Positions 3,601 through 64,000 of a stretch of DNA of 64,000 nt are shown one piece after another. The notes under the pieces were generated by a model. The model saw nothing but the letters and a program-made list of their open reading frames with translations. It had not been told where the DNA came from and did not search any database. Position numbers and translations under genes: made by a program. The stretch is from Candidatus Poribacteria bacterium. GTDB lineage: Bacteria; Poribacteria; WGA-4E; PCPOR2b. The stretch lies in contig OZ244587.1 of NCBI GenBank assembly GCA_965218095.1, forward strand, positions 4,064,001 through 4,128,000, read 5' to 3'. Each line of letters opens with the position of its first letter. Position 1 is the first letter of the stretch.

Positions 3601-4269
3601 CTCCATCCGGGGCGTATCTGGCGGCAAAATGACGCGGTTTGAGCCATTGATCAGTTCCGTGTTGATCATCGTCTGATTTTTCGTGTTGATTTCGGGATAA
3701 CGGTTAGGATGAAGTCGGACATTTCCCCCGCCGTCCGCCTGATTGGTTGAGATTAGGTAGGTCGTATAAAGATTGGACCTCGCCGAGATTTCAAAAGCCG
3801 TACTCAGCCAGTCTTTGACTTCCTGGAATGTACTGGGTTCGACAACGGGCGTGTAAAGATGACGGGCTAAAAAACGCGAGTCCGCAGGCACTTGTGTAGT
3901 ACTCGACCAGGGATCATCTCCGACGACAACAACGGCGCCGCCCGTCGTCCCCGCCAGATTGCTGATTGCCAGTGCATCGGACGCCACATGCATCCCAACG
4001 TTCTTCATAAAAGCAACCCCACGGAGATTCGCCATCTGCGAGCCGTTGAGCCTCGCGACGCTAAGGGCTTCATTGTTTGCGATTTGCGCGAGGACCCCGT
4101 GTTCTTTGAAGATATCTGCATTGCTCCTAATCACCTCGAACACATCCGCAAGGGGGGAGCCGGGGTATCCTGTTAGCAAATTCGCTTGACCTTCAAGTGC
4201 GCCTTTAACTAACAGCTCGCAGCCTGTATAGACATTCATCCCACTTTCTTGTATCAACCTTTTATCCAT
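661..4269 (-). CDS. Fused indolepyruvate ferredoxin oxidoreductase-family (2-oxoacid:acceptor oxidoreductase) protein
   Basis: GYPGSP, ANNEA, MKNVG; RTPTFCPGCPH; GDIGCY; TPP motif GDSTFFHGG...ILDNQTTAMTGHQP; ferredoxin Cys cluster CEFCLEC...GCP...CVSDGAC...CPSF; gamma-type domain GVGGMGIGT...GLAIRNGGV; C-terminal KDEVYVA. Confidence 0.9.
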   Translation of the reverse strand: MDKRLIQESGMNVYTGCELLVKGALEGQANLLTGYPGSPLADVFEVIRSNADIFKEHGVLAQIANNEALSVARLNGSQMANLRGVAFMKNVGMHVASDALAISNLAGTTGGAVVVVGDDPWSSTTQVPADSRFLARHLYTPVVEPSTFQEVKDWLSTAFEISARSNLYTTYLISTNQADGGGNVRLHPNRYPEINTKNQTMINTELINGSNRVILPPDTPRMELETLEGRFPNAIKIAREHHLNQIYYLSESQHEMGFVTSGLAYSYLEHALHELEFQGRIPILKLGLTHPLDEEIVRQFAGRVREIYVIEEKRPLLEKDVKAIVSQLYQNDEIDRYVPVWGKEFPMGLDGIPESLGLNPSILIQRLIPLLRHKSSAKIRIPGLSGLGRVAKRIEIDPDVFSREEKRIEQVSSHHVQIPARTPTFCPGCPHRDSASVFKEVADQFMDARYMERYHASPTVDLVFHGDIGCYSMLKYEPYPRLMHNLSAMALGGGTGAGIDPFIKNKQIVFMGDSTFFHGGMSAISDSIKNGQDLTYVILDNQTTAMTGHQPTPSTGDDILGNPTFAQDIEKVVDGLAGDSDLFIVRTNPENRVEYKKLVEETILKPGVKIIIADKECGITYHRRLRREYQKTIKEQGFLKVEKHINITPEVCEFCLECTKATGCPGLKVTETDYGPKIGIDQSNCVSDGACARIKWACPSFEEVIITRKRLPRQEADLQMMLVGGAESLPPPPSYDFSRTWSAYAAGVGGMGIGTISRVLVLAGQAQGYHVQFCDKKGLAIRNGGVYTHMTYSKTAAGLSPIIPYGKADLLIGMDLLEAVRGVDTNATFRIAMPDKTVAVVNTARTDTITTLIGKEHFEVEDLEKWLQTYTNAEEYFGVDLFEISERLLKNKLYANMMLLGVAFQRGLLPLELEVIQSALKLAVRPADLESNQRAFEIGRWLAINPDAYSAVPRWQTYKALLREKCEILARKRRGEALAHGYEALVQQTVDMLGLDDETNRGLALRVYDLIQFENLDYARLYINTIKGAHAQDFPEQGYRATKTAIKYLHKVMLIKDEVYVAHLLTSEEKLRRDKEHYNIDESNGDKIKYVHLNRPRFTIMGKDFQWDIDTMNWQLNLMKRMKFLRRWLSQWHINEKAFRDWYITEVVGTFAPHDAKSYANHVLALEAPEEVRGYREVRYPKMEAARKKVEGLLRNADHGSN

Positions 4270-4632
4270 GTTTGACCTTCCATTCTATAAGCTCATCCTA
4301 CTCACGGAACTCAAAAATGTGACGCCTTTTTCTTTAGTCGTATAATGTCGATAATGTATCCGCATAAAGCATGAATCAACAATCTTAGTCCTGGCTTGAG
4401 TTGCCGCCTATTGTTGATCCGTCCTGAATTCGGCAAGGAGGTCTTTTCGTTTGCCTCTATAACGCCAAAGCCAGTCAGAAAAATGTTTCCTTTTCGTCAA
4501 AAAAATGGTATTCTATCTCTGAGTTGAAGAAAAGGAAAGATATTCATTTTTTGGGTTAGTAGACTTGATAGCTCTGAGCTATAATTTTAGTTCAAGACAT
4601 TTCTCGCGCCAGCCGCAAATACAAGAACTCTT

Positions 4633-5295
4633 ATGAGGCTTCAAAGACACGGATTCTGGACAGATCGCGCCCTTTATCGTTGGGGCCATCGAATGGTTTG
4701 CTTTCTCATTGATGCGTTTGGGAAACTCAAATCTCATGGTAATGAAAATATTCCCCGACAAGGTGGCGTTCTCCTGTTGTCAAACCATGTCAGTTATCTA
4801 GATCCCTTTATCATTGCAGCCATTGGCATCCGTGATATCCATTTTATGACAAGACACAATGTGTTCCAGATTCCCGTCTTGAGTCGTCTACTAACTGCAC
4901 TCAATGCATATCCAGTGCGGCGTGGCAGCGCGGATCGCGCCGCGCTGAAACATACATTTTCCCTCTTGAAAGCGGGAAATGCCGTCCTAATCTTTCCCGA
5001 GGGTACGCGTAGCGTTGATGGCGACCTGGGCGAAGCCCGTGATGGTGTAAGTTTCATCATCCACAACTCGAATGTGCCTGCCATTCCTCTCTTTATCAAA
5101 GGGGCAGAACGAATGATGCCCCGCGATTCCAAATTCATCCATCCTGCCAAACTCTCCGTAACTGTTGGTCTTCCTATCGATTTCACCGAAGTTCAAAAAA
5201 TAGAAGACAAACGAGAACTGTACCGTTGTATGGGTGAGCAGATCATGCAGGCAATTGCAGACCTGCGGGACGCATCGTTGAAACGTGATACCTAA
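4633..5295 (+). CDS. plsC: 1-acyl-sn-glycerol-3-phosphate acyltransferase
   Basis: NHVSYLD (HxxxxD) and IFPEGTRS motifs. Confidence 0.9.
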   Translation: MRLQRHGFWTDRALYRWGHRMVCFLIDAFGKLKSHGNENIPRQGGVLLLSNHVSYLDPFIIAAIGIRDIHFMTRHNVFQIPVLSRLLTALNAYPVRRGSADRAALKHTFSLLKAGNAVLIFPEGTRSVDGDLGEARDGVSFIIHNSNVPAIPLFIKGAERMMPRDSKFIHPAKLSVTVGLPIDFTEVQKIEDKRELYRCMGEQIMQAIADLRDASLKRDT

Positions 5296-5565
5296 CGCGT
5301 CATGCGTGATACGCGATGGGTGCGGATTAAACAGACGACGCGGATTCAGAACCGATTGAACCTTCCGATAAAAATCGGCGATTCAGACCAGAGAAGATAG
5401 GGAGAAAGTGCATCTTGTTTTTCAACTTTAGAACATTTTAGACACTTTAGATTCGGCGGCACAATCCCGTCCCAACAAGATTCCGTTTTATCAAGAATTG
5501 TCCAAACTTTAGTATCTTATTAAGAGATACATATAAAACGTTTTCTTCATCATCGTAATCAAGAA

Positions 5566-5853
5566 TTAAAGTTGGACTTTATCCATCTCAAGAATCTTCA
5601 TCTCCACGCGGAAAAATTCCTTATTCTGAACAACCAAAGCCTTGAGCGATTTCGGGCTATCAAAAAAGAGCTTGATGACTTCATCGTATACCTTTCCCTC
5701 TACGCCATCTACAATGACCCGTCTTGTGAGATCTTGATCTGCCACACAAGCCAGACGCCTGAGATTTGGGATCACAACGAAATCCACACGATTTCCCTTC
5801 CATTTTCCCAAGGAAACTTCTCTGGTTCTCAATGATGGGAATTTTTGTTCCAT
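5566..5853 (-). CDS. Hypothetical protein (95 aa) downstream of recN
   Basis: Strong RBS (GAGAGGGAG) before the ATG; co-oriented and 22 bp downstream of recN. No family recognised. Confidence 0.6.
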   Translation of the reverse strand: MEQKFPSLRTREVSLGKWKGNRVDFVVIPNLRRLACVADQDLTRRVIVDGVEGKVYDEVIKLFFDSPKSLKALVVQNKEFFRVEMKILEMDKVQL

Positions 5854-5875
5854 AATTTAACTCCCTCTCAAAAGA

Positions 5876-7591
5876 TTAAGAGCCTGTCAACAATTCCCGA
5901 GCGTGGGCAAGCGTGGTTTCTGTCGTCTCACCGCCATGCATCCGAGCAATCTCCTCAACCCGTCCTTCCGGTGTCAGTTGCTTTGCCGTGATTATTGTTC
6001 GACCTCCTTCCACATGCTTGTCAACGCGAAAATGCCGATCCGCGAGGCGAGCAATCTGCGGAAGATGCGTGATGCAGATGACTTGACGAAAACGCGACAG
6101 TTCCTTCAATTTACCCCCAACAACATCCGCGGTGTGTCCACCAATGCCAACGTCGATCTCGTCATAAATCATCGTTGGGATGTTATCGATCCGGGCGAGC
6201 ACGGTTTTCAACGCCAGCATCGCACGAGAGATCTCGCCCCCAGACGCGATCTGTGCCAGGGGTTTTGGCTCTGATCCAACGTTAGGAGAGATGAGGAATT
6301 CGATTTCATCCATCCCATCAGACCTCAGTTCATAGCGTTTTCCATCGATCTGCAAGAGAGCATCAGGCGACTCAATGGGAGACACAAGGATTTGGAAAAT
6401 CGCTTTTTCCATGCCCAACGTCTGAAGTTCCTTCTCAATTAAAGATTCAAGCCGGGTTGCGGTTTCTCTACGCTTATTGGAGAGTTCAACCGCGAGCTTT
6501 TGGGCGTGCTGTGTCGCAACACGGATCTGATCTTTCAGATCTTCAATTCGCTCAGAACTAACTTGAAACTCCTGGAGCGTTTGCGATGCCTTTGCTTGAT
6601 AGTCCAAAATTTCAGAGATAGAATCTCCGTACTTCCGCTTGAGTCGATAGATGAGATCTAACCGTTCTTCGACTTCGGCAAGGCGACGCGGATTAAACTC
6701 AATAGTATCGCGATAATCACGGATCTGGTAAGTGATATCCTCTAATTCGTACAGGGCGGACTCTAAACGCTCGCTCAATTCTGACAAACTGCCATCCATC
6801 TGGCAGAGCTTTGAAATCGTGCTATCTGCCTTTTTCAGCCCGTCAAGTATCGAAAAATCCGATTGGATGCCGCCGTAGAGCTGGTCGTAGAGGTGGCTCG
6901 CTGATTCAAAGAGAGTTTCTGTGTTGCTGAGGACGTAACGTTCATTAACGAGTTCCTCTTCTTCCCCCGCTTGAAGCTGCGCTGCCTCCAGTTCTTCAAG
7001 TTGAAATTTCAAGAGCTCCCTCTCACGCATTGCGTCGCGCAATTTTTGGGAAAAATCAGCAAGGCGTCCCTGGGTGGCGTGGATCTCATCGTATTTTTTG
7101 TGGACTCGCGACTTGAGTGCTTCAAGCCCACCGAACGCATCAAGGAGATTTAGATGGGTCTTGGATCGAAAGAGGGATTGGTGCTCATACTGTCCGTGAA
7201 TATCAACCAGCGGATCGCCGATGGCGCTCAGGAACGTCAAGTTGACCATCTGTCCATTGATATGGCAACGACTACGCCCGCTTGTATTGATCCGCCGGGA
7301 TAAGAGCAACGTTTCTTCCGCATCCAAAACTTCACCCAAATCCGAATCGATAAAGGCACCCCACACAGGGTGCTCGGGAGGCGGTGCAACCGCAATCTGA
7401 ATTTTGGCGTTGCTTTCTCCATCTCTGACAATCCTGGAGGTACTGCGTTCGCCGAGTACAAGTCCCACGGCGTTTAAGATGACAGATTTGCCTGCACCCG
7501 TTTCGCCGGTGAGGACATTGAGGCCGGGAGAAAACGCCAATTGGAGCTCATCAATAAGCGCAATATTGCGGACATAAAGTTCTTCGATCAT
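5876..7591 (-). CDS. recN: DNA repair protein RecN
   Basis: Walker A LTGETGAGKS, IHGQ, ASGGEISR, DEIDVGIGG, ITHLPQIA; adjacent to nadK as usual. Confidence 0.97.
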   Translation of the reverse strand: MIEELYVRNIALIDELQLAFSPGLNVLTGETGAGKSVILNAVGLVLGERSTSRIVRDGESNAKIQIAVAPPPEHPVWGAFIDSDLGEVLDAEETLLLSRRINTSGRSRCHINGQMVNLTFLSAIGDPLVDIHGQYEHQSLFRSKTHLNLLDAFGGLEALKSRVHKKYDEIHATQGRLADFSQKLRDAMRERELLKFQLEELEAAQLQAGEEEELVNERYVLSNTETLFESASHLYDQLYGGIQSDFSILDGLKKADSTISKLCQMDGSLSELSERLESALYELEDITYQIRDYRDTIEFNPRRLAEVEERLDLIYRLKRKYGDSISEILDYQAKASQTLQEFQVSSERIEDLKDQIRVATQHAQKLAVELSNKRRETATRLESLIEKELQTLGMEKAIFQILVSPIESPDALLQIDGKRYELRSDGMDEIEFLISPNVGSEPKPLAQIASGGEISRAMLALKTVLARIDNIPTMIYDEIDVGIGGHTADVVGGKLKELSRFRQVICITHLPQIARLADRHFRVDKHVEGGRTIITAKQLTPEGRVEEIARMHGGETTETTLAHARELLTGS

Positions 7592-7667
7592 GGCGTTGAA
7601 TTAGGGAATCTGGGAATAGGCGAATAAGTAAATCAGCAAAAGGCGGCTTTGCACACCACATACCCTA

Positions 7668-8540
7668 TCACGTTTTACGCTTCGTTCCTTCTCCAAGCAT
7701 TAATTTCGTTTGCAAAACCTCATAGTAGCTGCGGTGCTGCGATCGAATCAATTTGATCGTCTTATCTGCCTTACGAACACGAATCAAGGAATCTGGCGCG
7801 AGGCAGTGTGTTTCACGCGGTCCGTCGACAAACAGGTTGACGCTGCTGTAATCGGATTGCATAATCACCGTAATTTCTGAATCTCCGTGCGCGATAAACG
7901 GTCGAACTGTTAATGAATGGGGAGCAATTGGCGTCAAGAGAATTGCGTTAAGATGGGGTTCAACAATCGTGCCGCCGCTTGACAAGGAATAGCCTGTTGA
8001 ACCACTTGGTGTGGCGATAATCAACCCATCTGCGTTGTAGGTGATGAATCGCTTGTTATCGATGTAGGTGTCCAACTCAATGAGGCTCGCATAGTGGCGA
8101 ATCACAACTTCATTCAGCGCAAAAGAGCTAGAATGCTCCTGATTATTGTGGTTGTCTACGCGGACCTCTAGCATCATCCGCTGATCGATTTCATATTCAC
8201 CATTAAAAATGTTAGTCAAAGCCGAGTAAAGCTGGTCGAGCGAAACGTCGGTGAGGAAACCGAGATAACCAATATTCACAGCGAGGATTGGGACGTTCTC
8301 AATCTGGGGCGTATGTGCGGCATCTAATAGCGTTCCATCACCGCCGAGCACCAGCAACAGGTCAGATCGCGCAACAACTTCATTCCGATTACATTTTGCG
8401 CCGGATATACCAAGGATCGCCGCTTGCTCATCAGGAACTAACGGATTCGCGCCATGACCCTGGAGCCAATCGTGAGCTGCGGTAACGACTTGGGCAGCTT
8501 TGGGTTTAGAGGTATTGACAAAGAAACCAATTGTTTTCAT
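7668..8540 (-). CDS. nadK: NAD kinase
   Basis: GGDGT, GYLGFL, ALNE, DGLIIATPSGSTGYSLSSGG motifs. Confidence 0.96.
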   Translation of the reverse strand: MKTIGFFVNTSKPKAAQVVTAAHDWLQGHGANPLVPDEQAAILGISGAKCNRNEVVARSDLLLVLGGDGTLLDAAHTPQIENVPILAVNIGYLGFLTDVSLDQLYSALTNIFNGEYEIDQRMMLEVRVDNHNNQEHSSSFALNEVVIRHYASLIELDTYIDNKRFITYNADGLIIATPSGSTGYSLSSGGTIVEPHLNAILLTPIAPHSLTVRPFIAHGDSEITVIMQSDYSSVNLFVDGPRETHCLAPDSLIRVRKADKTIKLIRSQHRSYYEVLQTKLMLGEGTKRKT

Positions 8541-53361: not shown

Positions 53362-54192
53362 TGACCAGAAGCCTTCAATCGTGTTAGTATGGGCGCTGCC
53401 GTCCACGAATTGCCTCGCTTGGTGATTGACCACTTCGTGAGGCATGATAGGGTCTATGACCCTATAAGATTGGAATTCATCAGTCATTAAGACACTTCCA
53501 TTTAGATTGACGTTTTCATTGATGAATTCTAGTATGGTTTTCCCGGTGAGGTTGTCGGTCGGGCGAGCGATAACCTTACCCCCCTCTCAACCATTCCAAT
53601 CACGGACGTTTTGTTCGTACCACGTCCACGTTTGGAAGGTTGAGTGGGCTCCCTTCCTTCATTTCTTCTGCGTGGTTTCCCCCCAATGTAGGTTTCATCA
53701 GCTTCGATGATGCCCTGCAGGAGGACATCTTCTTGGCTTGCCATCTCAGCACGGATACGTGTAAGCATATACCATGCCGTCTTTTGATTCATTTCTAGGT
53801 CTCTCGCCAATTGGCAGCTTGATATGCTTTTCTTGGCGTTAATGACAAAGCTGATGCCTAAAATCCACTTCTGTAAGGGTATCTTGGACTTGTGAAACAT
53901 AGTCCCCGATAACACGTTGAAACTAGACTTACAATCATAGCAATTCCACCGTCCAAGATGGCATCGCCAGTGTGCTGCTTGTTCTTTTTCACGCCTGCGA
54001 GCTACGTGATCACTGCCACAATGCGGGCAAGTCGTATGTTCACCCCACCTTGTTATCTCAAGATAGGATATACATGACTCGTGGTCAGGTAACATTTCAA
54101 AGATTTCCATCAAAGTCATAACGACTATCCTTCCTTTATCATGGTCTGCTAATTTTTGGAAGTAATACACTTCTTACAAGGTGAATAACGCT
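53362..54192 (-). mobile_element. IS1595-family element remnant (frameshifted, interrupted by IS5)
   Basis: Zn ribbon CPHCGS..C..C, GT.FHKSK.PL.KW, S..QL.R.L...QKTAW, IEADETYIGG; shifted-frame continuation LMTDE..SY...H..VNH...HTNTIEGFWSL ending at the IS5 end. Confidence 0.88.
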
Positions 54193-54218
54193 CTTTTGCC
54201 TCAGTGGGTATGGGTGTT

Positions 54219-54695
54219 TCAGTATCCCCATAAGCCCTTGCTTACTGATTTTGCTATATCCTCATAATTCTGAAACAATGGCATGTATTCAAATGGATAC
54301 TTAATGTACGCCTTGCCATACCCTTGACGGACTAGCTCTAAGTTGACGAACAAGCCATCTGGCACTCGATATACATACGCCAGCAGCCTGCCATATTTCC
54401 CACGTTTTTCATCATCATACTTCAAATATACTGATTCCCCAAGTAACAAGTTTTTGGTGAATTCAGTGGCTTGTGGGCCGTATGGTTCAACAGGTTGGGT
54501 TGGGTATACAGTCTCTGGCGTGTCAACGCCAATTAAGCGAACAATCTCCTTCTTCTGCTTATACTTAATTTCAATCGTATCACCATCAATTACCCGGAGT
54601 ACCTGATATGATTCACTTTCGTTAAAGTATTTTAACTTTACTACCACCACAATAAATACAATGAAGATCACCCAGAATACGTGCTTACCCTTCAT
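54219..54695 (-). CDS. Thermonuclease (SNase) family protein with an N-terminal membrane anchor
   Basis: RVIDGDT, VRLIGVDTPE, YGRLLAYVY, VNLELVRQG, A.....GLW; RBS AAGGAG. Confidence 0.92.
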   Translation of the reverse strand: MKGKHVFWVIFIVFIVVVVKLKYFNESESYQVLRVIDGDTIEIKYKQKKEIVRLIGVDTPETVYPTQPVEPYGPQATEFTKNLLLGESVYLKYDDEKRGKYGRLLAYVYRVPDGLFVNLELVRQGYGKAYIKYPFEYMPLFQNYEDIAKSVSKGLWGY

Positions 54696-55295
54696 TGTTG
54701 TATCTCCTTTAGTTAATGTTAGATTATTGTATATCAACAAGGATGCATCTGAAATTACTTCTAACTAAACTGGCATAGCAGTTCCAGATGTAATCACCCC
54801 AAAGTCAATCATAGCTTGCGTTTCAACGTCTTTAGTATACCACATTTTTTCACGTTTTTCAAGTCAATATCTACTATTTTTTGTGGCTTTAGGATGGTAT
54901 ATTCATTCTTATTCCTCAGTAGGTAAGCATAGGTATTTCTCTAGTAGTGGGCATGAAAAAAGCCCAACTTTGATTGAGTGGCTCAATCCAAAACTGGGCT
55001 TGTTAGTCTTGCCTGCGTGAATTGTTGCTTCTATTCAAATAATTTGATAATTAATGATAAATTCTGTATACTTTGATTGGTGAATTAATATCTATTAGGC
55101 GTGAAAGTCATAATGACTTCCTGAGTCTAATCAATGGATGAATATCCGAATACTTTGATTATGTGAGATAATGATGGTATAATCAGGTTGAAAATCTGAC
55201 GATTCAGTCTCATTATTTAGAACTACCATTCTAAAGAAAGGAGGCTGAATGCTCTGACAAAAATCAATCAGGACAGCATAGCACCTTGAAAGGAA

Positions 55296-55706: not shown

Positions 55707-56111
55707 TCAACATCTACTAATCGCGATTGATTCCGTATGGGCTGGAATCAAATCTTGCGTGCCCTCAAATGCCTTCAGGTAGGTCCTTCCGAGTACAAAA
55801 CAGATTGAAGCGTAGTTATTGCATAAGAGGTCTGAAAACGTTGTATTGACTTGGAGTTGCAACTCAACGGCCCGCGACGTGTCCATCTTTCGGTCATACC
55901 ATGCGGTTGGGAAAGCACCCGGGATAAGCCCATAGGCAGCAGATAAGATGTACACATCTAGCCCCCCTGCCTGACGTGGACATTCACGAAGAAAACGACG
56001 TAAGACTAAAAATGGCGGACCGTTGTATCTCTCAATTGCAGGTAACGGCTCCTGAACCTCGTGTTTCCGTTGTGAGCAGGATAGAATGAGTAACCGTCGT
56101 TTGTCGTTCAT
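55707..56111 (-). pseudogene. DUF6884-domain protein (apparently C-terminally truncated)
   Basis: RLLILSCSQRK....LPAIERYNGP.F.VLRR.L......DVYILSA.YGLI......YD.KM ... LG.TY..A. Confidence 0.7.
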
Positions 56112-56362
56112 GGCGTCTCTGTAGTCGGGATATTTGAGAAACGAATTGACTTTTCAAGAAGAAAGGGGATCTCCTGCAAGGTCAAAGTAGGAAAAGGGGA
56201 GGGATGCCAGAGAGATCTTAGACTCGCTGGCATTCAAGAGGTTAATCTTCTAGTAACTGCATGACTCCATCTGCTGATCTTTGGCTTTGAAGCGTGGGAC
56301 GATTTTTTAGGGAAGGGAGGCGTGGACTCGGGTTAAGGTCACTTCGGATTTGAGGCGGAATC

Positions 56363-57679
56363 TCAAGGAACAAAATTATGATTTTCATCAAAAAGAGGAA
56401 TCAAATCCTTGCTTAATCCAAAAGAAGTATAAATCTCTTTTACTAAATCGTAAGCAACTTGATCTGGGATAAACTCTGGTTCAATATTCTGTTGCGTCCC
56501 AATTGCATCAGATTGCATGTACACATTCTGAAATTCCTCGACTCTGCTAAAAAGTGGATTGGATGGATGCCTTCCCACTAATAGAAATCCGCTAAGATTA
56601 CGATATTCCTGTTGGACGATAATTTTAGAATCAATACCAACCGCTGAGTAAATTGCTTTAACCAACCTCATGAATGTAACCGGAAATTCACATACCGCAT
56701 AAGGATACAACCACTTTGAATCGGCAGAAATTCCGCTCTCTTCCTTGAACCATTGGAAGTGATCACTAGACAGCGGAAGCCTCAGTTCAAGGAATCCATT
56801 TTTTAAAATAATTACTTCATAGTCCAATACATCTACGCCCTTAATTCCCTCAGGAGAATCTTCTATTCTCTCAACCCCTATAAAGCCGAACCCGGTTCTA
56901 CGAACATTCTGTGGATCCCGCAAAATAGCGTGTACCTCTTGTTCCTGCGTAGAAACTGCATCAGGATTGAGCGTTGTGGGTACTGCGAGGATTCGGTAAT
57001 AAGGTTCGTCTGATATAACCTCCTCAAATCGTAGTTTCATTAAATGAAGAAGGTCCCCAACTCTTTGCTGTTCTAAGGCGTCCTCTTGAGGAGATATCGA
57101 ACTTCTCCTGCTCTGCTGTATATTCCTTGAAATGGCATCCAATTGAGCCTGAATCGGTGGATAATGGCGGCTCGCAAAAACTTCAGCCAGTTCGGACATA
57201 GGATATTCTCTGATGTGGTTGCCATACCGTTTTACAAAGTGGGTAAAGTTTTTCCAGACGAAACTGTGAGGACGTAGATCACTCGGTGGGATATGAATAA
57301 TTACAAGAGTGATGTTCTTACCGTTCCATTCAAAAGAACGCGTATTCACTTCCAGATTCCGAATGCGCGGGTCAATAGATTCTAGGCAAACGCTGTAAAT
57401 GCTTTGCGCTATTTTGTCAGGATTCTTTACGGGGAAAAAACCTTGTGCTATCCCGGCCTTTTCTTGAACACCAATGATAATATATCCACCTTCTGCATTA
57501 GCCATGGCGGTGACATCCTTGCATATTTCGCGTTTGTACTCTTCTTGGTCGGTCGAATCACGGTGATAGTCTTGCCGCTTGAAATCAATCCACTGGTCTT
57601 CTTCCTGATTGCCAATCAAATCTATTAATTCTTGGTCGGTGATTTCAGAAATGCGGCGACGGCAATTGTCAAATATCAT
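56363..57679 (-). CDS. Schlafen/AlbA_2-domain protein
   Basis: N-terminal EDQWIDFK...EICKDVTAMANAEGGYIIIGVQE...IDPRI...IHIPPS..RPH....KRYG; long uncharacterised C-terminal domain. Confidence 0.88.
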   Translation of the reverse strand: MIFDNCRRRISEITDQELIDLIGNQEEDQWIDFKRQDYHRDSTDQEEYKREICKDVTAMANAEGGYIIIGVQEKAGIAQGFFPVKNPDKIAQSIYSVCLESIDPRIRNLEVNTRSFEWNGKNITLVIIHIPPSDLRPHSFVWKNFTHFVKRYGNHIREYPMSELAEVFASRHYPPIQAQLDAISRNIQQSRRSSISPQEDALEQQRVGDLLHLMKLRFEEVISDEPYYRILAVPTTLNPDAVSTQEQEVHAILRDPQNVRRTGFGFIGVERIEDSPEGIKGVDVLDYEVIILKNGFLELRLPLSSDHFQWFKEESGISADSKWLYPYAVCEFPVTFMRLVKAIYSAVGIDSKIIVQQEYRNLSGFLLVGRHPSNPLFSRVEEFQNVYMQSDAIGTQQNIEPEFIPDQVAYDLVKEIYTSFGLSKDLIPLFDENHNFVP

Positions 57680-57775
57680 TTAATCTATGCCCCTCTTTGC
57701 AGGCGGCATTCCTTTCTCGCAAATCAAGGCAGGGGTATCGCTCCTATAGCATAGCAAACCAATTGAATCTGTTGA

Positions 57776-58663
57776 TTACAATTCACGATAATCCCCTTGA
57801 AACACCTCTCTAACATGCCAGCCAATGAACTCTACCGCCGGATAATAGGACTGCCTTTGAGGAAACTTGATTTTTTTACCGTGGAACCTCATAAGCCATT
57901 CCTGAAAGCCTACTGAACCGTGTGCATCATCTGATACCCGTATTTCTAATTTCTCGGATAGCGCAAAAGCCCCACGGTCAAATAGCTTATGGTGTAGCGA
58001 ACATAGAGCCAATCCATTCACTTCTGTATCGGGGCCATCTGCCTGACGCCATTTGATATGAGAGGCTTCTAACGCAACGGGCTGATGACCCAATTTCACA
58101 TCAAAGTCACAGACAGCACATTTATATTCGTAGGCTTTCAGGATATTTGCTCGGAAGTTGGGGTCGCGCCTTTGCCGCTTAGAAATCTGGAGAGGGAACT
58201 CAATCCCAACAGCCTGTAAAATGTCTTCATGAAACGAAAAAGGGAAATGAGCGTCTAGCAGGCTCTGGATTATCTCAAAAGACAACTTGGAATCGTTCTG
58301 AAGTTGATGGGCAATATCTTCTATGAACCCTCCAGAAACGTCGTAACGAACCAGATCGCCTTTTAGAGCGTCCCCACTTGCTGTTTGCCCAATTTTATCG
58401 GTATCGGATATCTCCCAAATTCCATCATTTTGGAGCCGCCAAAACGGATACTGTGTTCCATAATTAGCTTGTTTGGGTCCAAACTCCCTCAGTAAGTTTC
58501 CAAGGTTCTCATCTATTTCGGAGTATGGAAGGAGGCGGTTCTCACCTCGTAACAATTTCCCAATGGCATACAGAACCAGCAAGGGCTTGTGAGGTGCTCT
58601 CTCGTCAGCGTTTTTCCACACCTTTAATTGTTCAAATTTATGAGCAATTGATTCTTTGTCCAT
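57776..58663 (-). CDS. Phosphorothioated-DNA-binding (SBD) HNH restriction endonuclease
   Basis: SBD motifs RAPHKPLL.L and YPFWRLQNDGIW; HNH RDPNFR..IL.AY..KCAVC...LEASHI..W....GPD...NGLALCSLHHKLFD.G. Confidence 0.88.
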   Translation of the reverse strand: MDKESIAHKFEQLKVWKNADERAPHKPLLVLYAIGKLLRGENRLLPYSEIDENLGNLLREFGPKQANYGTQYPFWRLQNDGIWEISDTDKIGQTASGDALKGDLVRYDVSGGFIEDIAHQLQNDSKLSFEIIQSLLDAHFPFSFHEDILQAVGIEFPLQISKRQRRDPNFRANILKAYEYKCAVCDFDVKLGHQPVALEASHIKWRQADGPDTEVNGLALCSLHHKLFDRGAFALSEKLEIRVSDDAHGSVGFQEWLMRFHGKKIKFPQRQSYYPAVEFIGWHVREVFQGDYREL

Positions 58664-58793
58664 TTTTCACGCTCTGCTACTTGGGAGAATCTACAATAAG
58701 CTACGCACACTCACAACTCGCAAATCAGACACGGCTTATCATCATATCAGTGAGACTTTCTATCAAGACATGATTTGGTCGCATCGTTTTCTT

Positions 58794-60695
58794 TTATTCC
58801 ATTTGTCTAATGTCGTCCACTACTGATTTCAACAGCAGTACTTGAATCTGTGAACCTGACTTCGTGTCTTGTAGGTAACGGGTTACCCCTAGATAAACGT
58901 TATCTGGATAATATTTACTGTGTTTTATATCCACAAACCCAAACTGATCTGACTTTGAAGAACCTTCCTCCCATGCAATTACCAATTTTAGCTCGCGAGG
59001 ATTTTTGGCTTCTCGTTCTAAATCTTGAATCAACGAAGATGCAGTCACCTTGAACTCTATTGCTGAAAGTTGTCTATCATCCGCCGGTATGACCGGATCC
59101 GTTTTATCTCCACTCCGTCTTAGGATGAATCTTCCATCAAAGGGATCCATCTGTGATAACCCAAAACTCTGGTAACCGTCAATGTATCCTCTGCCGAGTA
59201 ATTCAAAGAAGAGTGCGATGACATCATTCTCATCTCTAGGTACTTTTTTAATCGCGAGTTCAGAGATATTTAGACTGTCGCGTTTCAAGAAGAAGTCGTA
59301 TTGTTCATCGTCATCTGACGAATTAACTCTTCCAACCCAGTTGCTTGCCGCTGTTTGAATTGTCGTTGCATAGGCATCATTCACAAACCGGCGTATACGA
59401 CTAATCAAGTGATTATCAGTTAATTGCGACTTGCCGTAGTTTAGGGTTGCATCCACATCTATGACCAAATCAAAGCTACGGGCATATGACTGAGTACGAC
59501 CTCGGGTTAGATCTACTTCGTGTGTTGTGACGACTCCATTTGCTGAAATCACACGTTGACTTCCACCGGGAAGGAATTCTTCAAACAAGGGTATCTGACC
59601 AATAGTGAGAAGAATTCCGTTGATTCGCGGAAACAACATCTCTTTATATTTCTTTATTGACTCCTTCATTCCTTTGGGGAGCTTTCCATTCTTGTCAGTG
59701 ATAAGTTTCTCGTAATCTTCCGCATCGGCATAAAGGCAGGTATTAAACCCTTTCCATGTTCGAGTAAGATTTGTACCTCCGCGCCCTAATGATTGATCAA
59801 ATAAGCCGGGGCGATCTTGTTGAGGCACCCAATTACAAGTCTCTGAGACAAAAAGGTATTCAGGACTAATCTTGAATGAAAATTGCGTTTTTCCATCAAA
59901 AAGGTCTCCAATTTCATCACTGAAGTCCGCCGGGGGGTTGGAGCAGGTGACATGTGTGTGAATAGTCGTGTTCAATAGTTCCTGTTTCCCGCCGAGGTAA
60001 TTCAAAACATCCCCGGCATAGGTATAGCGACGGAGAAAAGCAGCCATTAAGCCAGCAAGTCGGTTTTCATAAAAACCGCGTTCTACAGCTAATTTTAAAG
60101 TCTTGCCAAAGTCAGAATCATTACCTCGTGGCAAGCATTGGTCGTACATACTTTGTATAAATTGCTTAACAGGATTATCCTCGGTATGTTCGGGAAAGCG
60201 ATAATAGACTTCCGTCCCATTATTTAATGGAGATGGATCATCAGGGAATTGACTTGGGACTTGTAAATTCGGCGGTGGGTCTTTTTCAAATTGGTAAGCG
60301 TCTGAGATTTCATAACGAAATGCCCCTTGATCTGAACTTGCCCGGAGGCGAAATTCTTTAGAAGAAAACAATACGACTTTTATTCCAACTCCCACAAGTC
60401 CAAAGAGTTTTCGATTTCCAGAGCGTTTTGTTCCACCACCGAGGAACAGAAGGCTTGGATCGTTTGGAAAACCGATACCAGTATCAGTAACTGTAATAGA
60501 TTTCTGGTCTAAGTCAAGATTAATGTTGATTTCATGAGAGACTCCATCATCAACTTCAACAATAGCGTCAATGGCATTCTGAAGGGCTTCTCCTAAAACA
60601 ATTTGGGTTGGATTATAAGCATTAATTGTCTGTCTGAGCTGATGCCGGTAATGCTCACTTAAATTCGAGGGATTTAGCAAATCTAAGGATTCCAT
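58794..60695 (-). CDS. GHKL (HATPase_c_3/MORC-like) ATPase fused to a C-terminal PD-(D/E)xK-type nuclease
   Basis: N-box EALQNAIDA, G1 DTGIGF, G2 GLVGVGIK, G3 GTEV; C-terminal P.DENDVIALFFEL...PFDG...AIEFK...LVIAWE. Confidence 0.8.
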   Translation of the reverse strand: MESLDLLNPSNLSEHYRHQLRQTINAYNPTQIVLGEALQNAIDAIVEVDDGVSHEININLDLDQKSITVTDTGIGFPNDPSLLFLGGGTKRSGNRKLFGLVGVGIKVVLFSSKEFRLRASSDQGAFRYEISDAYQFEKDPPPNLQVPSQFPDDPSPLNNGTEVYYRFPEHTEDNPVKQFIQSMYDQCLPRGNDSDFGKTLKLAVERGFYENRLAGLMAAFLRRYTYAGDVLNYLGGKQELLNTTIHTHVTCSNPPADFSDEIGDLFDGKTQFSFKISPEYLFVSETCNWVPQQDRPGLFDQSLGRGGTNLTRTWKGFNTCLYADAEDYEKLITDKNGKLPKGMKESIKKYKEMLFPRINGILLTIGQIPLFEEFLPGGSQRVISANGVVTTHEVDLTRGRTQSYARSFDLVIDVDATLNYGKSQLTDNHLISRIRRFVNDAYATTIQTAASNWVGRVNSSDDDEQYDFFLKRDSLNISELAIKKVPRDENDVIALFFELLGRGYIDGYQSFGLSQMDPFDGRFILRRSGDKTDPVIPADDRQLSAIEFKVTASSLIQDLEREAKNPRELKLVIAWEEGSSKSDQFGFVDIKHSKYYPDNVYLGVTRYLQDTKSGSQIQVLLLKSVVDDIRQME

Positions 60696-60765
60696 TTACA
60701 ACCTCCATTTGATATTAATGCACATTAAATGTGTTTAGGGACTTTGCACCAACTTTTCCAGTTAA

Positions 60766-61584
60766 TCACAAATCACAAATCAAACATGGTTTCTCGTCGT
60801 CTTCATCATCAAGAACATCACCGAAAATTTCAATTAACGAGCGATTAGGTTGGGACTTTTTTTCTTGTGCCATTGCCTTCGCATAATTTTCCTTAATCTG
60901 CTGTTCCCGCTTAGGATCGGCCAGATCTTCTAAACTTTCACCTTGACTCCAAGTGTACCTCTCACCTGTTTTATCATTAAATTTCTCATAACCCTTGGCG
61001 AGTTCAAAGAGTTCGGGGTGGTTATCTTTCAACCCAATCCACTCCGCTTTGCGTTGGTAGAAACAGAAGTAGCACCCGGAGCGTGTTCGCCACTTGTAAT
61101 ACTCTGGTAAGCCGAGACCGCTCTCCTCCAAAATCCGATAGACATCTTTCTCGGTGATGCCGTCCTCTTTGAACGGATATTTGGGTTCGATATTTCGGAG
61201 TTCAACGTTCTTGAGGGGTTTATAGCCAACGCGGTCTTCATCGGCGCGGATGGCGATGTAGTTGTAAGCCTGATCCTCACCGACAAATTCCTCGAAGGGT
61301 TTGATTTTCAGCAGCCGTGTACACCAACGCACCTGCGCTGACGGTAGCAAGCCGCCGAAGACCGAAAGCCAGTGGTCAAATTCGCGCCCGGCGTTTAACC
61401 GTTCAATTTTTTTCCCTAAAAAGGCTTCCAACCGATCGAGAAATTCATACGTCTCCGGCAACTCTTTTCCCGTATCGCAGAAAGCGTATTCCATCCCCGG
61501 CACTTTGTCCCGCATGTAAATAGCGAGTGCTGAACTATCTTTACCTCCGGAAAGACCGAGGATATGGCGTATTTTGGGCTTCAT
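60766..61584 (-). CDS. sspD: PAPS-reductase-family protein, SspD/BrxP-like (DNA phosphorothioation)
   Basis: PP-loop LGLSGGKDSSALA, FCDTG.ELPETY, RWCT..LKIKPF, IRADE.R, LGLP.YY.WR.RSGCYFCFYQRK.EW, terminal C..C. Start assigned to MKPK after CAGGAGG; the ORF track starts at 61611. Confidence 0.8.
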   Translation of the reverse strand: MKPKIRHILGLSGGKDSSALAIYMRDKVPGMEYAFCDTGKELPETYEFLDRLEAFLGKKIERLNAGREFDHWLSVFGGLLPSAQVRWCTRLLKIKPFEEFVGEDQAYNYIAIRADEDRVGYKPLKNVELRNIEPKYPFKEDGITEKDVYRILEESGLGLPEYYKWRTRSGCYFCFYQRKAEWIGLKDNHPELFELAKGYEKFNDKTGERYTWSQGESLEDLADPKREQQIKENYAKAMAQEKKSQPNRSLIEIFGDVLDDEDDEKPCLICDL

Positions 61585-61732
61585 GTTTGCCTCCTGATGG
61601 ACAGTTTTCAATTGAGTTGGCTTACATCCTCGTACATTTGGAAATTGATGCCGATTAGAACCTGTTTTAAAAACCCCAGTTTCTACTTGAAAAACACCGT
61701 TGAGAAATGCTCGGAAGTTGCATACTTTTCAT

Positions 61733-61857
61733 ACTTTTTCGAGGAAACGGGAAGAGACGAAAAAGGAAGGAAGGGTAGGCACAAGACCTACCCCTACATT
61801 CCTTCCATTCTTTCTAGTCGCTTCAGAAGATAACCTTAAAACTGAAACTTGCCTAAG
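61733..61857. repeat. ~125-bp direct repeat, copy 1
   Basis: ACTTTTTCGAGGAAACGGGAAGA.ACGAAAAAGGAAGGAAGGGTAGGCACAAGACCTACCCCTACATTCCTTCC...CTTCAGAAGATAA, repeated at 62276-62399. Confidence 0.92.
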
Positions 61858-62053
61858 AAGTCTTTAGATGGCAACGTGGGGTTCCGAGTAACTTTCCGAG
61901 GTCCTTCCCGTGCAAACCCCTCAGAACTCAGTTATAGCCTGAGTTATCACCCTTTTTTGTCTCTATCAAATTCTCGCATTTACTCTGAAAACTCTGAAAC
62001 TTTCAAACATCTCTCAATAAGATTTACCACTGTCGCTCGTTCTTTTTTAGATA

Positions 62054-62275
62054 TGGGACTTACGCACTTCAGTAGGGAACAACTCTCGGACTCTCGGTCG
62101 TAGACCGGATGATCGTCGTTCCCTACGAAACAGAACCGGCGCCTAAGGACTTACTGTAGTTGCCCGATTCATCGGGCGTTGGGAGTTGTCCTATGTGGCG
62201 ATGAGCCGCCGAACTACCCCCCCTGATAAGGGAGGCAGGGGGGTTGGCTTCGAGCGTTCAACTGCGTAAGTCCCA
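62054..62275. mobile_element. MITE with GGACTTACGCA terminal inverted repeats, copy 3, carrying GTAG-REP doublets
   Basis: TGGGACTTACGCACTTCA ... TTCAACTGCGTAAGTCCCA; internal GTAGGGAAC..GTTCCCTAC and GTAGTTGCCCGATTCATCGGGCG...GGCGATGAGCCGCCGAACTAC. Confidence 0.8.
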
Positions 62276-62399
62276 ACTTTTTCGAGGAAACGGGAAGATA
62301 CGAAAAAGGAAGGAAGGGTAGGCACAAGACCTACCCCTACATTCCTTCCATTCTTCCTAGTCGCTTCAGAAGATAAATTTAAGCCTGAAAGTTGCTAAG
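62276..62399. repeat. ~125-bp direct repeat, copy 2
   Basis: Near-identical to 61733-61857. Confidence 0.92.
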
Positions 62400-62571
62400 C
62401 CGTGTTCACTATTAAATTTACGTGACTTTCATAGGAGAAGATGACTTTTCAAACAGGCTCTTACAGTTTATAGCCGCTTTCTTCCATCCTTCCATCCTTC
62501 CAGTCTTATCCCTTTCACATCTTGCTCATATTGTAACACCATCTGTTAAATTATGCACTCCCCTTATTCAC

Positions 62572-64000
62572 CTATTCCTCAAGCCGTTCCATCAACTTCT
62601 GTGAGATTCGTGCGAGGACTGCAAGGCGAAGTTCAGGGTTGCCATCTACGCCAAAGGACTCAAAAACTTGCTCGATTGCACGCTCGATTTCGTCTGCTTG
62701 CGCTTCGGCGGTTGGTGGCAGAGTAATAACCCGTTCTTGCTCTGGTGAGGAGAGGGTAGTGATGCCAACCCGAATCACCTGACCTGGGCTGTCAGAAGAT
62801 TTTTCAGATCGCTCCTGTCGTTCAAATGAGACCGCTTCAAAACGATGAAACCTTCTCGCGAGTTCAGAAAGGTTCATTTCAAAATGGGCTTTATCTGAGT
62901 CGTTCCACGATGCCGGGGGTTTTTGGGCAATATACGTCCCAATTGCCTCAAGCCATCCTTTGAAATCTAGCCCTTTGTCACAGACTCGGATGAAAAATCC
63001 TTTGAGTTTCGTCTCAATCGTCAAATCAAACAGTGCCTGGGCTCCCCTAAGCAGTTCAACGCGGTTTTCCTCACCATTCCCTTTCAAGGAAAATGCTGAA
63101 ACGAGCAGTTGTTCGATAAAATTTAGTAGGTCATCATAAGCCCTCGCCAATTCGGACAACGCGCCGCGCAAAGTTTTGAAGAATTCATCAACTGCCGTTG
63201 AATCGGTCTCCGCTGATGGACCGAACGCCGGAAAGCCGAGGGCTTGGGGCAACTGTTCAAAGAGGAGTGCGTCCGGTTCTCGCGCATCGGTGATGGTTTT
63301 ACGAAAGGAGATCGCGGCGTCGCTTAGTTCCTGCGTAGCATCGTATAACGAGGCAGTTTGGCGATAAAGCGTATGAGCGGCTTAACAACTTCTAGCAGAT
63401 TTGGATGACCTGTCGTCCCTCGCGGTTGAGAAAGCAGCCCTGTAAATTGCTCAAACACCTCTGCTCGAATACCGTCAATCCGAAAACGCTTGAGTTCAAA
63501 TTTCTCAGGAGACTTAATCAACCGTTCAAAAACCGCGATTGAGATATCCGCGACAAAGGAAGCTTCTTCGTACAGCGCGATTTCCGCCTCGTAATGAAGC
63601 AGAACCGCGCATAAAAGGATGGGCAACGGGCCACTTCTCAAACCGAAGGGCGGTTTTTCCAAGCGTTCATAGAGTTTTACAACGGACTGACGTTCAACTT
63701 CGCATTCGCTAAGAAATCCCTCGACGGCTAACCAAGTGGCAGAGATTCGGTTTTTATCATCGGTTTTCGGTGGATGAAACCCCCAAACCCCCGAAACGCA
63801 ACGGTGTATCCCGGTATCGAACAGTAAGGAGAGGTAAATGCTCATTTCGGGTGGATAGCTGTTGATACCTAGTTTTTCTTGCTGTTGGGAATTCAGCATC
63901 CCTGCAATGAGTTTCCGTCTCGCGGACGACGCTTGTGAGGAGATTTGTCGTCGATTGATGAGTTCGTTGCGTAGGATTGGCGTTGCGTGATAAACCTCAT
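62572..64000 (-). pseudogene. sspC: C-terminal part of an SspC-like large ATP-binding protein, with a 1-nt frameshift near 63331 (5' end outside the window)
   Basis: TPILRNELINRR.IS.Q...AR..L, LGI..YPPE..IY, PPFGLRSG.LPIL, LP.YT..|T..LS..A..FR..I..AREPD.LLFE.LP.ALG, WLE.I......KPP..W.D.D. These are typical of the ATPase encoded between DUF4007 and PAPS-reductase genes. Confidence 0.75.

Follow-up and report, generated by a model that had tools for sequence, protein, structure and literature searches.

The stretch of DNA analysed here, a window of 64,000 nucleotides (G000:C1:4064001-4128000, part of a single contig of 6.35 Mb), carries near its end a gene array of the Ssp type, i.e. of the kind that introduces phosphorothioate (PT) into DNA, and this array together with the genes that follow sspD is the subject of our analysis. 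When the adjoining 20 kb are included (locus L001, in which a coordinate equals the window coordinate minus 55000), the order of the genes, all on the minus strand, is sspB, sspC, sspD, a gene for a GHKL ATPase-nuclease, a gene for a nuclease that combines a sulfur-binding domain (SBD) with an HNH domain (SBD-HNH), a Schlafen gene and a DUF6884 gene (table 1). Gene families were assigned from a listing of open reading frames (ORFs) and from profile scans (Pfam, PADLOC, NCBIfam, PDB). The six co-oriented minus-strand genes that an earlier, sequence-only reading of the window had described were all recovered as ORFs at the same coordinates, and the flank past position 64000, which that reading had proposed to inspect for sspB, indeed holds this DUF4007 gene. 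The best explanation of the locus, with a probability of roughly 55% in our estimate, is a partly decayed, mosaic Ssp-type PT defence locus with two effector modules and accessory genes in a Poribacteria-like sponge symbiont. The GHKL protein and SBD-HNH are probably undescribed cutting arms of Ssp phage defence.

Table 1. Features of the Ssp-type locus and its downstream edge and, in the last three rows, of a Dnd-type locus in the same genome. Coordinates are those of the window unless L001 or L019 is named.
Feature	Position	Strand	Match or remark
sspB, 309 amino acids (aa)	L001 11639-12568, beyond window	-	PADLOC SspB 2.9e-101; Pfam DUF4007 1.7e-93
sspC, N-terminal piece, 577 aa	L001 9464-11197, beyond window	-	PADLOC 5.8e-172; model positions 2-528
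sspC, middle piece, 367 aa	L001 8324-9427 (window 63324 to window-equivalent 64427)	-	PADLOC 4.2e-111; model positions 543-883
sspC, C-terminal piece, 226 aa	62572..63252	-	PADLOC SspC 2.7e-33; model positions 918-1100 of 1104
sspC frameshift site	63336..63339	-	tblastn frame switch
sspC-sspD spacer, 960 bp	61612..62571	.	dispersed repeats
sspD, PAPS-reductase-type PP-loop sulfur-transfer enzyme, intact	60766..61611	-	PADLOC SspD 3.1e-115
GHKL ATPase with transducer and predicted C-terminal PD-(D/E)xK-type domain, 633 aa, intact	58794..60695	-	HATPase_c
SBD-HNH, 295 aa, intact	57776..58663	-	NF045808, HNH_2
Schlafen/AlbA_2-domain protein, 438 aa, accessory	56363..57679	-	PF04326 1.5e-18
DUF6884-like protein, 134 aa, accessory	55707..56111	-	PF21818 1.9e-6, 28.5 bits
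SNase-fold gene, downstream island edge	54219..54740	-	SNase 3.6e-23; PADLOC C3a212 4.1e-33
Truncated IS1595 transposase, downstream island edge	53529..54170	-	DDE_Tnp_IS1595 2.4e-9
DndC (PAPS_reduct and Sp-DndD)	L019 9992-11440		
DndD	L019 7938-9992		
SBD-HNH-like gene, convergent to the Dnd writer	L019 6968-7921		NF045808 134 bits, below cut-off

Among the writer genes, sspD encodes a full-length protein (positions 1-276 of the 277 of the PADLOC profile, with Pfam PAPS_reduct at 1.8e-10). For sspC, which the sequence-only reading had listed as one gene for an SspC-like ATPase, the family assignment holds and the unity of the gene does not: it lies in three pieces, the middle one of which is BrxC/ORC-like ATPase sequence whose in-window part (63324-63998) matches SspC at 9.5e-80 over model positions 667-883. 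In the assembled sequence two lesions break the frame, one in-frame TGA outside the window (L001 9464-9466), at a position where all three intact SspC homologues have Arg by tblastn, and one frameshift inside it, where tblastn of the same three proteins changes frame at L001 8336-8339. The frameshift, which is not located in a homopolymer run, amounts to the loss of one base compared with a near-identical strain, since a contig of 729 nt assembled from X4, an independent public run, and having 16 other differences carries one extra base directly behind L001 8336, so that the sspC frame of that strain is open. In 11 of the 15 loci in which relatives of the GHKL gene were studied (see below), sspC is uninterrupted, with one ORF of 1134-1186 aa. 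In addition, the spacer between sspC and sspD measures 960 bp, as against 12-380 bp in relatives. It is made up of dispersed repeats, for which blastn against the 6.35-Mb genome gives 36 hits (the self-hit and two internal repeat hits counted), with pieces that are 78-97% identical across the genome. It also contains an internal 125-bp direct repeat, each copy of which includes a hairpin with a 10-bp stem followed by a T-rich run, i.e. two identical terminator-like hairpins on the minus (coding) strand at 62338-62314 and 61795-61771; contig depth over the spacer is about 1000 in three metagenome runs. Because of the sspC nonsense codon, the 1-base deletion and the repeats in the spacer, PT writing from this locus has probably been lost, and the locus as assembled is unlikely to write PT. 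No second ssp locus was found in the genome, and contigs from the RNA run, mostly 90-95% alike, give no evidence of its expression. Neither sspA nor another cysteine desulfurase gene is present in the locus. Two class-V aminotransferase (IscS-like) genes elsewhere in the genome are 39-40% identical to the SspA of a related locus (L015), and an unlinked gene of this IscS-like type probably supplies the desulfurase.

The base composition changes within the array. GC content is 0.40-0.47 from sspD to the DUF6884 gene, while sspC and sspB have 0.49-0.52 and the sequence further out about 0.50, with the step coinciding with the sspC/sspD spacer and a minimum of 0.36-0.39 at the downstream edge (SNase and IS1595 genes, 53529-54740). 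The AT-richer island of the sequence-only reading is therefore real in its composition, but it begins only at sspD. SspD shares 88-91% identity with its best relatives, whereas SspB and SspC reach only about 62-74%. Taken together, the GC step and this gap in identity suggest that the locus is a mosaic in which a cassette starting at sspD has been replaced and is of other origin than sspB-sspC.

The first long gene of this cassette after sspD encodes the GHKL protein, which matches Pfam HATPase_c (1.3e-6, 29.2 bits, cut-off 26.4) and has no PADLOC family. In NCBIfam it yields only a sub-threshold Hsp90 match (18.7 bits against a cut-off of 455), a sequence search of PDB gave only chance-level Hsp90 matches (E 0.5-0.9), and, with regard to the MORC and MutL subfamilies (HATPase_c_3 and MutL profiles), only the generic HATPase_c matched. 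Its homologues are numerous, with 239 full-length sequences at E <= 0.001, the best 120 of which are 46-89% identical, and 421 homologues at the same threshold in a search of all cluster representatives. In 50 sequences reaching down to 22% identity, invariant columns comprise E36, N40, D43, D71, G75, G99 and G104, with G73 nearly invariant, and further downstream G421-K422, E489, D520 and E547-F548-K549. The former include the ATP-binding motifs (E36/N40, D71xGxG, G99-G104). In a set of 75 sequences, conservation is complete for D520 and K549 and at least 90% for E489 and E547. An AlphaFold2 model of the protein (pLDDT 90.9) finds Hsp90, GyrB, ParE and SMCHD1 by Foldseek (E 1e-13 to 1e-9), and the extent of these matches, 450-500 columns, indicates a GHKL module followed by a transducer. 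When residues 470-633 were modelled alone (pLDDT 97.2), they formed an alpha-beta-beta-beta-alpha-beta core in which helix 1 bears E489, strand 2 D520 and strand 3 E547-x-K549, and in this model the layout of residues is that of a canonical PD-(D/E)xK nuclease.

The predicted architecture thus follows that of GHKL ATPases of the MutL, MORC, Hsp90 and GyrB type, in which a Bergerat fold is succeeded by a transducer. As in MutL, the GHKL module is joined to a C-terminal endonuclease, but this is a small domain of putative PD-(D/E)xK type rather than the MutL endonuclease domain. MORC-like genes that occur in related loci align to the GHKL protein over the ATP-lid region only (hhalign probability 18.8%, 56 columns). 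The idea that a MORC-like gene and the 162-aa gene paired with it in the closest SBD-HNH loci might constitute a split GHKL-nuclease was rejected on this figure and on an hhalign value of 0.1% for the 162-aa protein.

Linkage of this protein family to PT writers was assessed in several samples. In species genomes, 15 loci with GHKL relatives of 41-80% identity were searched for ssp genes by tblastn and hidden Markov models (HMMs), and 14 have an ssp gene in the flank, the single miss being a contig of 3.2 kb. In 8 of the 15, sspD and the GHKL gene are on the same strand, with no more than about 150 bp from the stop codon of the one to the start of the other. Among metagenome contigs with close relatives (at least 37% identity), 11 of 20 hold an ssp gene, and of 23 distant relatives (21-33% identity) two are found in Ssp operons and two beside DndC-DndD-DndE. 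Overall, the association with ssp genes extends from 80% down to 25% identity and over Poribacteria, Latescibacterota, Chloroflexota, Actinomycetota, Cyanobacteriota and Verrucomicrobiota; within 40 related genomes, one has a close GHKL orthologue. Judged from these neighbourhoods, the close GHKL clade is Ssp-associated, with the wider family being a predicted defence-type ATPase-nuclease whose range extends beyond PT.

Companion genes of the GHKL gene, as far as a scan covering some of the neighbours of each locus reveals them, are varied. They include an overlapping gene of 813-823 aa with a weak HATPase_c_3 match (four loci), PbeA/PbeC-like genes (five loci; in L006 with PbeA at 1.4e-202 and PbeC at 1.4e-49) and a superfamily 2 helicase with a MORC-like ATPase and a PLD protein (L015 and L012), and in the distant loci L025 and L022 helicase and MORC-like genes adjoin the writer. 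In L011, L016 and L017 the GHKL gene is, among the neighbours scanned, the only long non-writer gene recognised beside the ssp genes; in L016 a short PD-(D/E)xK-like ORF separates it from sspD, and in L017 it is encoded on the strand opposite to sspD, at a distance of about 2.3 kb. A protein that usually follows sspD directly inside the writer operon, that often occurs alongside complete putative effector modules (Pbe-like or helicase-MORC-PLD) and a distant relative of which sits between sspB and sspC in L022 could also be an accessory subunit of the writer, which for instance remodels or nicks DNA for SspBCD, instead of a restriction effector. We consider such a role very unlikely, since SspBCD with IscS writes PT in E. 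coli without a GHKL-type protein, as described in passages of PMC8092258, the GHKL gene is present in only 3 of 80 loci with close SspD relatives and the conserved putative nuclease motif points more to an effector. Locus L022 (7148-19166, Phototrophicaceae) has peculiarities of its own, as its GHKL-nuclease relative is 27% identical, its PAPS-reductase has a C-terminus of the 4Fe-4S ferredoxin type, and next to these genes, on the other strand, follows a GmrSD/SspE-like DUF262+DUF1524 gene of 772 aa.

The second putative effector, SBD-HNH, belongs to NCBIfam NF045808, the phosphorothioated DNA-binding restriction endonucleases (8.6e-108, 359.8 bits, cut-off 180, profile positions 3-284 of 284). 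A sulfur-binding winged-helix domain (about residues 1-145), matching in PDB (5zmm/7cc9) the SBDs of ScoMcrA (4.1e-12) and SprMcrA (7e-11), is fused to an HNH nuclease (Pfam HNH_2, 1e-10). Its residues H25-K26 and Y72-P73 align to the ScoMcrA cavity residues H116, R117, Y164 and P165 (5zmm), and the equivalent of ScoMcrA A168 is Arg. Passages of PMC6224610 describe the roles of the sulfur-cavity residues in ScoMcrA and report Lys in place of R117 in most homologues. The architecture is the same as that of SprMcrA and EcoWI, as far as these are covered in the parts of PMC6224610 and PMC7461809 consulted, whereas ScoMcrA possesses an SRA domain that SBD-HNH lacks. In the same partial sources ScoMcrA, SprMcrA and EcoWI appear as solitary type IV enzymes, whereas the clade of SBD-HNH is operonic with ssp writers in roughly one third to one half of the sampled loci.

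This linkage emerged from samples anchored at either gene. In 79 loci with SBD-HNH relatives of 54-86% identity, taken from the best 80 of 489 matches, an ssp match is present within 10 kb in 42 and an SspD of at least half length in 34; in 28, sspD ends at most 150 bp upstream on the same strand. Conversely, among 80 loci anchored at SspD relatives (L134-L213; 57-91% identity, mostly Poribacteria), 38 contain SBD-HNH, 15 times directly after sspD and 17 times directly before sspB. A lack of recurrent linkage of the GHKL and HNH genes to ssp genes, which the sequence-only reading had named as a possible refutation of PT coupling, is therefore not what we observe, as relatives of both are each recurrently, and often operonically, linked. 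Published expectations differ, since SBD-HNH enzymes were near dnd writers in <3.6% of cases according to the portion seen of Lutz 2020 (PMC7461809). Genes combining a winged helix-turn-helix with SAD and HNH domains have been noted in Dnd loci of 698 taxa in passages of Rakesh 2024 (PMC10853773), which contain no report of such genes in Ssp loci, and the linkage seen here extends that observation on Dnd to Ssp. The genome under study also has a Dnd-type writer of its own, about 3.6 Mb from the window (L019, G000:C1:490001-506000), with an SBD-HNH-like gene next to it (table 1), so that both PT writers of this genome have a neighbour of the sulfur-binding HNH type.

A PT-binding nuclease next to a writer raises the possibility of conflict: SBD-HNH may cut Ssp-type PT, its arrival with the sspD-proximal cassette may have made PT writing harmful, and the lesions in sspC may then have been selected. 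The NF045808 family is indeed defined by PT-dependent cleavage (passages of PMC7461809 and PMC6224610), and mutated writers are proposed as one explanation of co-occurrence in the part of Lutz 2020 available (PMC7461809). In our data, two independent lesions hit sspC while SBD-HNH departs from its 20 aligned relatives in none of the columns invariant among them, ssp genes are fragmented or frameshifted in the Poribacteria SBD-HNH loci L056, L058, L061, L100 and L114, and 17 of the 79 SBD-HNH loci have sspD without sspC. Yet sspB, sspC and sspD all accompany SBD-HNH, each matched over at least half its length, in 10 of the 79 loci, and the same holds for 20 of the 45 SspD-anchored loci that hold both sspB and sspC. 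Most of these loci have SBD-HNH and sspBCD in one co-oriented array, and such a pattern would hardly persist with a lethal pair. The genome under study, moreover, retains its Dnd locus with the SBD-HNH-like neighbour, and overall we regard a history of conflict as distinctly improbable.

A further question is whether the genes following sspD form a unit. The GHKL family of the window is absent from all 79 SBD-HNH-anchored loci; its three occurrences among the 80 SspD-anchored loci (two by HMM, one cut by the end of the locus) are without SBD-HNH within the flank fetched, and in the 15 GHKL-anchored loci a distant SBD-HNH-like gene was found only in L012, about 4 kb from the GHKL gene. Homologues of the two proteins do occur on contigs of identical length (37310, 104542 and 6169858), a hint that near relatives may carry both. 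The four closest relatives of SBD-HNH are in loci with the order sspD, a HATPase_c_3 ATPase (568-597 aa), a 162-aa gene and SBD-HNH, but this ATPase is not orthologous to the GHKL protein. More generally, the slot after sspD is variable, with a gene of about 818 aa with a weak GHKL match in 19 of the 80 SspD-anchored loci, a pair of GIY-YIG (about 150 aa) and DndB-like (about 470 aa) genes in 17-18, Pbe-like genes in 14-17, a pair of MORC-like and 162-aa genes in 12 and SspF with SspG in one; in this sample PADLOC was run on 27 representative proteins, so that SspE and SspFGH are possibly under-counted. Poribacteria Ssp loci are thus combinatorial, with the GHKL gene and SBD-HNH as alternative or independent modules, and the six genes of the window are not a conserved unit. 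Of the new PT-coupled system envisaged in the sequence-only reading, the linkage of the GHKL and SBD-HNH families to ssp genes has been borne out, whereas the six genes do not belong to one system and sspC is broken.

Restriction partners already known for SspBCD were looked for specifically. Neither the six genes of the window nor seven upstream ORFs include SspE (DUF262/DUF1524) by Pfam, and no gene of the locus matches SspF, SspG or SspH in PADLOC, which in a positive control recognised SspF (3.8e-228) and SspG (7.2e-201) in locus L212. The sole full-length DUF262 ORF of the genome (592 aa, C1:2169253) is about 2 Mb away, with a second match being a fragment of 125 aa. The statement that neither sspE nor sspFGH adjoins the array thus stands for the window genes and for the upstream flank past position 64000, where their presence would, by the sequence-only reading, have made the locus an ordinary defence-island aggregate. 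According to the sections of Wang 2021 at hand (PMC8092258), 2,211 of 2,678 sspBCD operons have neither sspE nor sspFGH, and further partners have been proposed.

The SspABCD-SspE systems of Vibrio cyclitrophicus FF75 and E. coli 3234/A share sspB (DUF4007), sspC and sspD with our locus (Xiong 2020, as cited in PMC8092258 and PMC11662687), and SspE, as described there, resembles the GHKL protein in being a single NTPase-nuclease polypeptide encoded directly after sspD, but it consists of DUF262 (a ParB-like GTPase) and DUF1524 (HNH-like) and has no sequence relation to it. In SspABCD-SspFGH of Vibrio anguillarum FF-93, an alternative restriction module adjoins sspBCD as it does here, but in the form of three genes, with a Walker A motif in SspF and an FtsK-like C-terminus in SspH (passages of PMC8092258). 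DndI of the IscS-DndBCDE-DndI system of Salmonella Cerro 87 is another one-protein ATPase-nuclease, yet it is built of DUF262 and DUF1524, works with a Dnd writer and lacks a GHKL fold. In the excerpts of PMC11662687 on which this comparison draws, PT stimulates the ATPase of DndI and thereby releases it from self DNA, and PT tunes the ATPase of both one-polypeptide NTPase-nucleases, SspE and DndI. The PbeABCD or CxC ABC ATPase-DndE system, known from Xiong 2019 as discussed in passages of PMC10853773, takes up this position behind sspD in some of the related loci and does not occur in the window. In the searchable full-text literature, with subscription papers and supplements outside its scope, no GHKL partner of sspBCD came up, nor is one described in the passages of PMC10853773, PMC12839542 and PMC12914056 that were available.

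On this basis we propose that SspB, SspC and SspD form the PT writer and that the slot downstream of sspD, which holds alternative effector modules in related genomes, contains two of them here. By analogy with other GHKL ATPases, ATP binding would dimerise the GHKL protein and clamp it around DNA, which its built-in PD-(D/E)xK domain could then cut, in an architecture like that of MutL or MORC. Following the logic of SspE and DndI, the ATPase cycle might be tuned by PT such that unmarked foreign DNA gets cut. SBD-HNH, being an operon partner of sspBCD in this lineage, probably binds PT for self-recognition or in a foreign PT context rather than attacking the host's own marks, and the Schlafen and DUF6884 genes would be add-ons. 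PT writing would have been lost in this genome while the effector genes stayed intact, and intact effectors beside a broken writer would be consistent with recent decay as well as with an SspE-like effector that does no harm in the absence of PT. A bolder version, in which a clamp-nuclease of the GHKL type set by PT and an SBD-HNH turned partner of the writer are two undescribed PT readers that are swapped after sspD in sponge symbionts, is possible but clearly tentative.

Several observations weigh against the reading of the locus as Ssp defence with two cutting arms. Function is deduced here from gene neighbourhood and predicted fold, and for the C-terminal domain of the GHKL protein the structural side of the PD-(D/E)xK assignment is weak: the best VIA Z score is only 4.2, below the noise guide of the tool, and Foldseek with the model returned nothing at E <= 0.001, even if the top VIA rows are mostly PD-(D/E)xK nucleases (SfsA, NucS, FokI, LlaBIII, MspJI and Can1). 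Nine of the 20 metagenome contigs with close GHKL relatives have no ssp gene; seven of them are shorter than 7.3 kb, but L215 (14.3 kb) and L218 (11.5 kb) are real ssp-less exceptions. Of the 23 distant relatives, four are beside methyltransferase or restriction genes and six among housekeeping genes, with short and partial loci among the rest, so the wider GHKL family is not PT-specific. Most of the linked loci, moreover, belong to a small number of sponge-symbiont phyla and do not count as independent cases. At least eight loci combine the GHKL gene with a further set of putative effectors, either Pbe-like or helicase-MORC-PLD, so that the main restriction arm may be a different one. The SBD-HNH enzymes in the literature cleave PT-DNA (passages of PMC7461809 and PMC6224610) and, as they are also rarely near dnd writers, a role of SBD-HNH in self-recognition is a conjecture. 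With respect to the decay of the writer, public contigs of the likely source runs do not span the site of the sspC frameshift. As to the two exceptional contigs themselves, L215 and L218 hold a GHKL subclade of 56-57% identity, with no ssp gene by HMM.

Part of this evidence would also suit an ordinary defence-island aggregate, in which the GHKL gene, SBD-HNH (as a type IV enzyme directed at foreign PT-DNA), the Schlafen gene and the DUF6884 gene are independent of each other, uncoupled to PT writing and simply located beside a dying Ssp operon. The gene set is different in every related locus, GHKL and SBD-HNH genes were together in none of the 79 SBD-HNH loci and none of the three SspD-anchored loci with GHKL, 37 of the 79 SBD-HNH loci are free of ssp genes within 10 kb (25 of these with at least 5 kb on both sides), and distant GHKL relatives are solitary or adjoin restriction-modification genes; at the locus itself, an IS1595 fragment, the SNase gene and the repeats mark a mobile, eroding region, and the GC step falls exactly on the sspC/sspD spacer. 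Chance aggregation does not, however, readily account for same-strand adjacency to sspD within 150 bp in 8 of 15 GHKL and 28 of 79 SBD-HNH loci, for the further 17 of 80 SspD-anchored loci with SBD-HNH directly before sspB, for a linkage that holds from 80% to 25% identity across six phyla, or for relatives that also adjoin Dnd, the other PT writer. We therefore rate it as unlikely and keep to the decayed Ssp defence locus with two effector modules.

If correct, this interpretation would add, with the GHKL-nuclease, a MutL/MORC-like ATPase to the PT-sensing effectors. In its bolder version the clamp-nuclease would even represent a third class by mechanism, in addition to SspE/DndI (ParB-like) and DndFGH/SspFGH (translocase-type), and SBD-HNH, once an attacker of PT-DNA, would use sulfur binding either to leave self DNA alone or to distinguish CpsCA marks of the host from foreign PT contexts. 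Most sspBCD operons are without a known restriction partner, and the locus yields two candidates with conserved catalytic motifs, for both of which many intact natural operon examples exist. The frequent operonic arrangement of a PT-binding nuclease with a PT writer contradicts the published expectation that such enzymes avoid writers, and it raises the question of how self-cutting is prevented.

The accessory genes at the downstream end of the array are of less certain affiliation. The Schlafen protein is well supported (PF04326 at 67.9 bits with a gathering cut-off of 25.3, residues 27-158), with neither HATPase_c_4 nor a winged helix-turn-helix detected in its C-terminal half, and a PDB sequence search gave E >= 0.11 for this protein and nothing for the DUF6884-like one. 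The latter scores 28.5 bits, below the Pfam gathering cut-off of 30, and matches PADLOC PDC-M57A at 5.8e-5; the genome has three paralogues, and since one of them, 41% identical, passes with 41.3 bits, the protein can be taken as a borderline member. Accordingly, from the pair of Schlafen/AlbA_2 and DUF6884 proteins named in the sequence-only reading, the first assignment is firm and the second borderline. Schlafen relatives occur in 3 of the 79 SBD-HNH loci and 5 of the 80 SspD loci, DUF6884 relatives in 6 (four times directly after SBD-HNH) and 4, respectively. Schlafen genes are mentioned as common auxiliary effectors of BREX-related loci in passages of PMC12839542.

Outside the array, a trypsin-TPR protein, a penicillin amidase and two solute-binding proteins are encoded upstream of sspB. 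At the downstream edge, the match of the IS1595 transposase is limited to profile positions 2-47 of 153, and no tRNA was found at the edge of the island. A scan for promoters and terminators returned sites no more numerous than in shuffled sequence and so provides no evidence on operon structure. Elsewhere in the same genome (L018, G000:C1:3552001-3566000, at 2559-7771), 49 aa remain of the N-terminal end of an SspD (71% identical), and immediately downstream of this remnant come a DUF6884 gene of 256 aa and then NurA-like, HerA-like and TGT-like genes. The arrangement could represent another decayed locus of PT type or else a separate DUF6884-HerA/NurA module.

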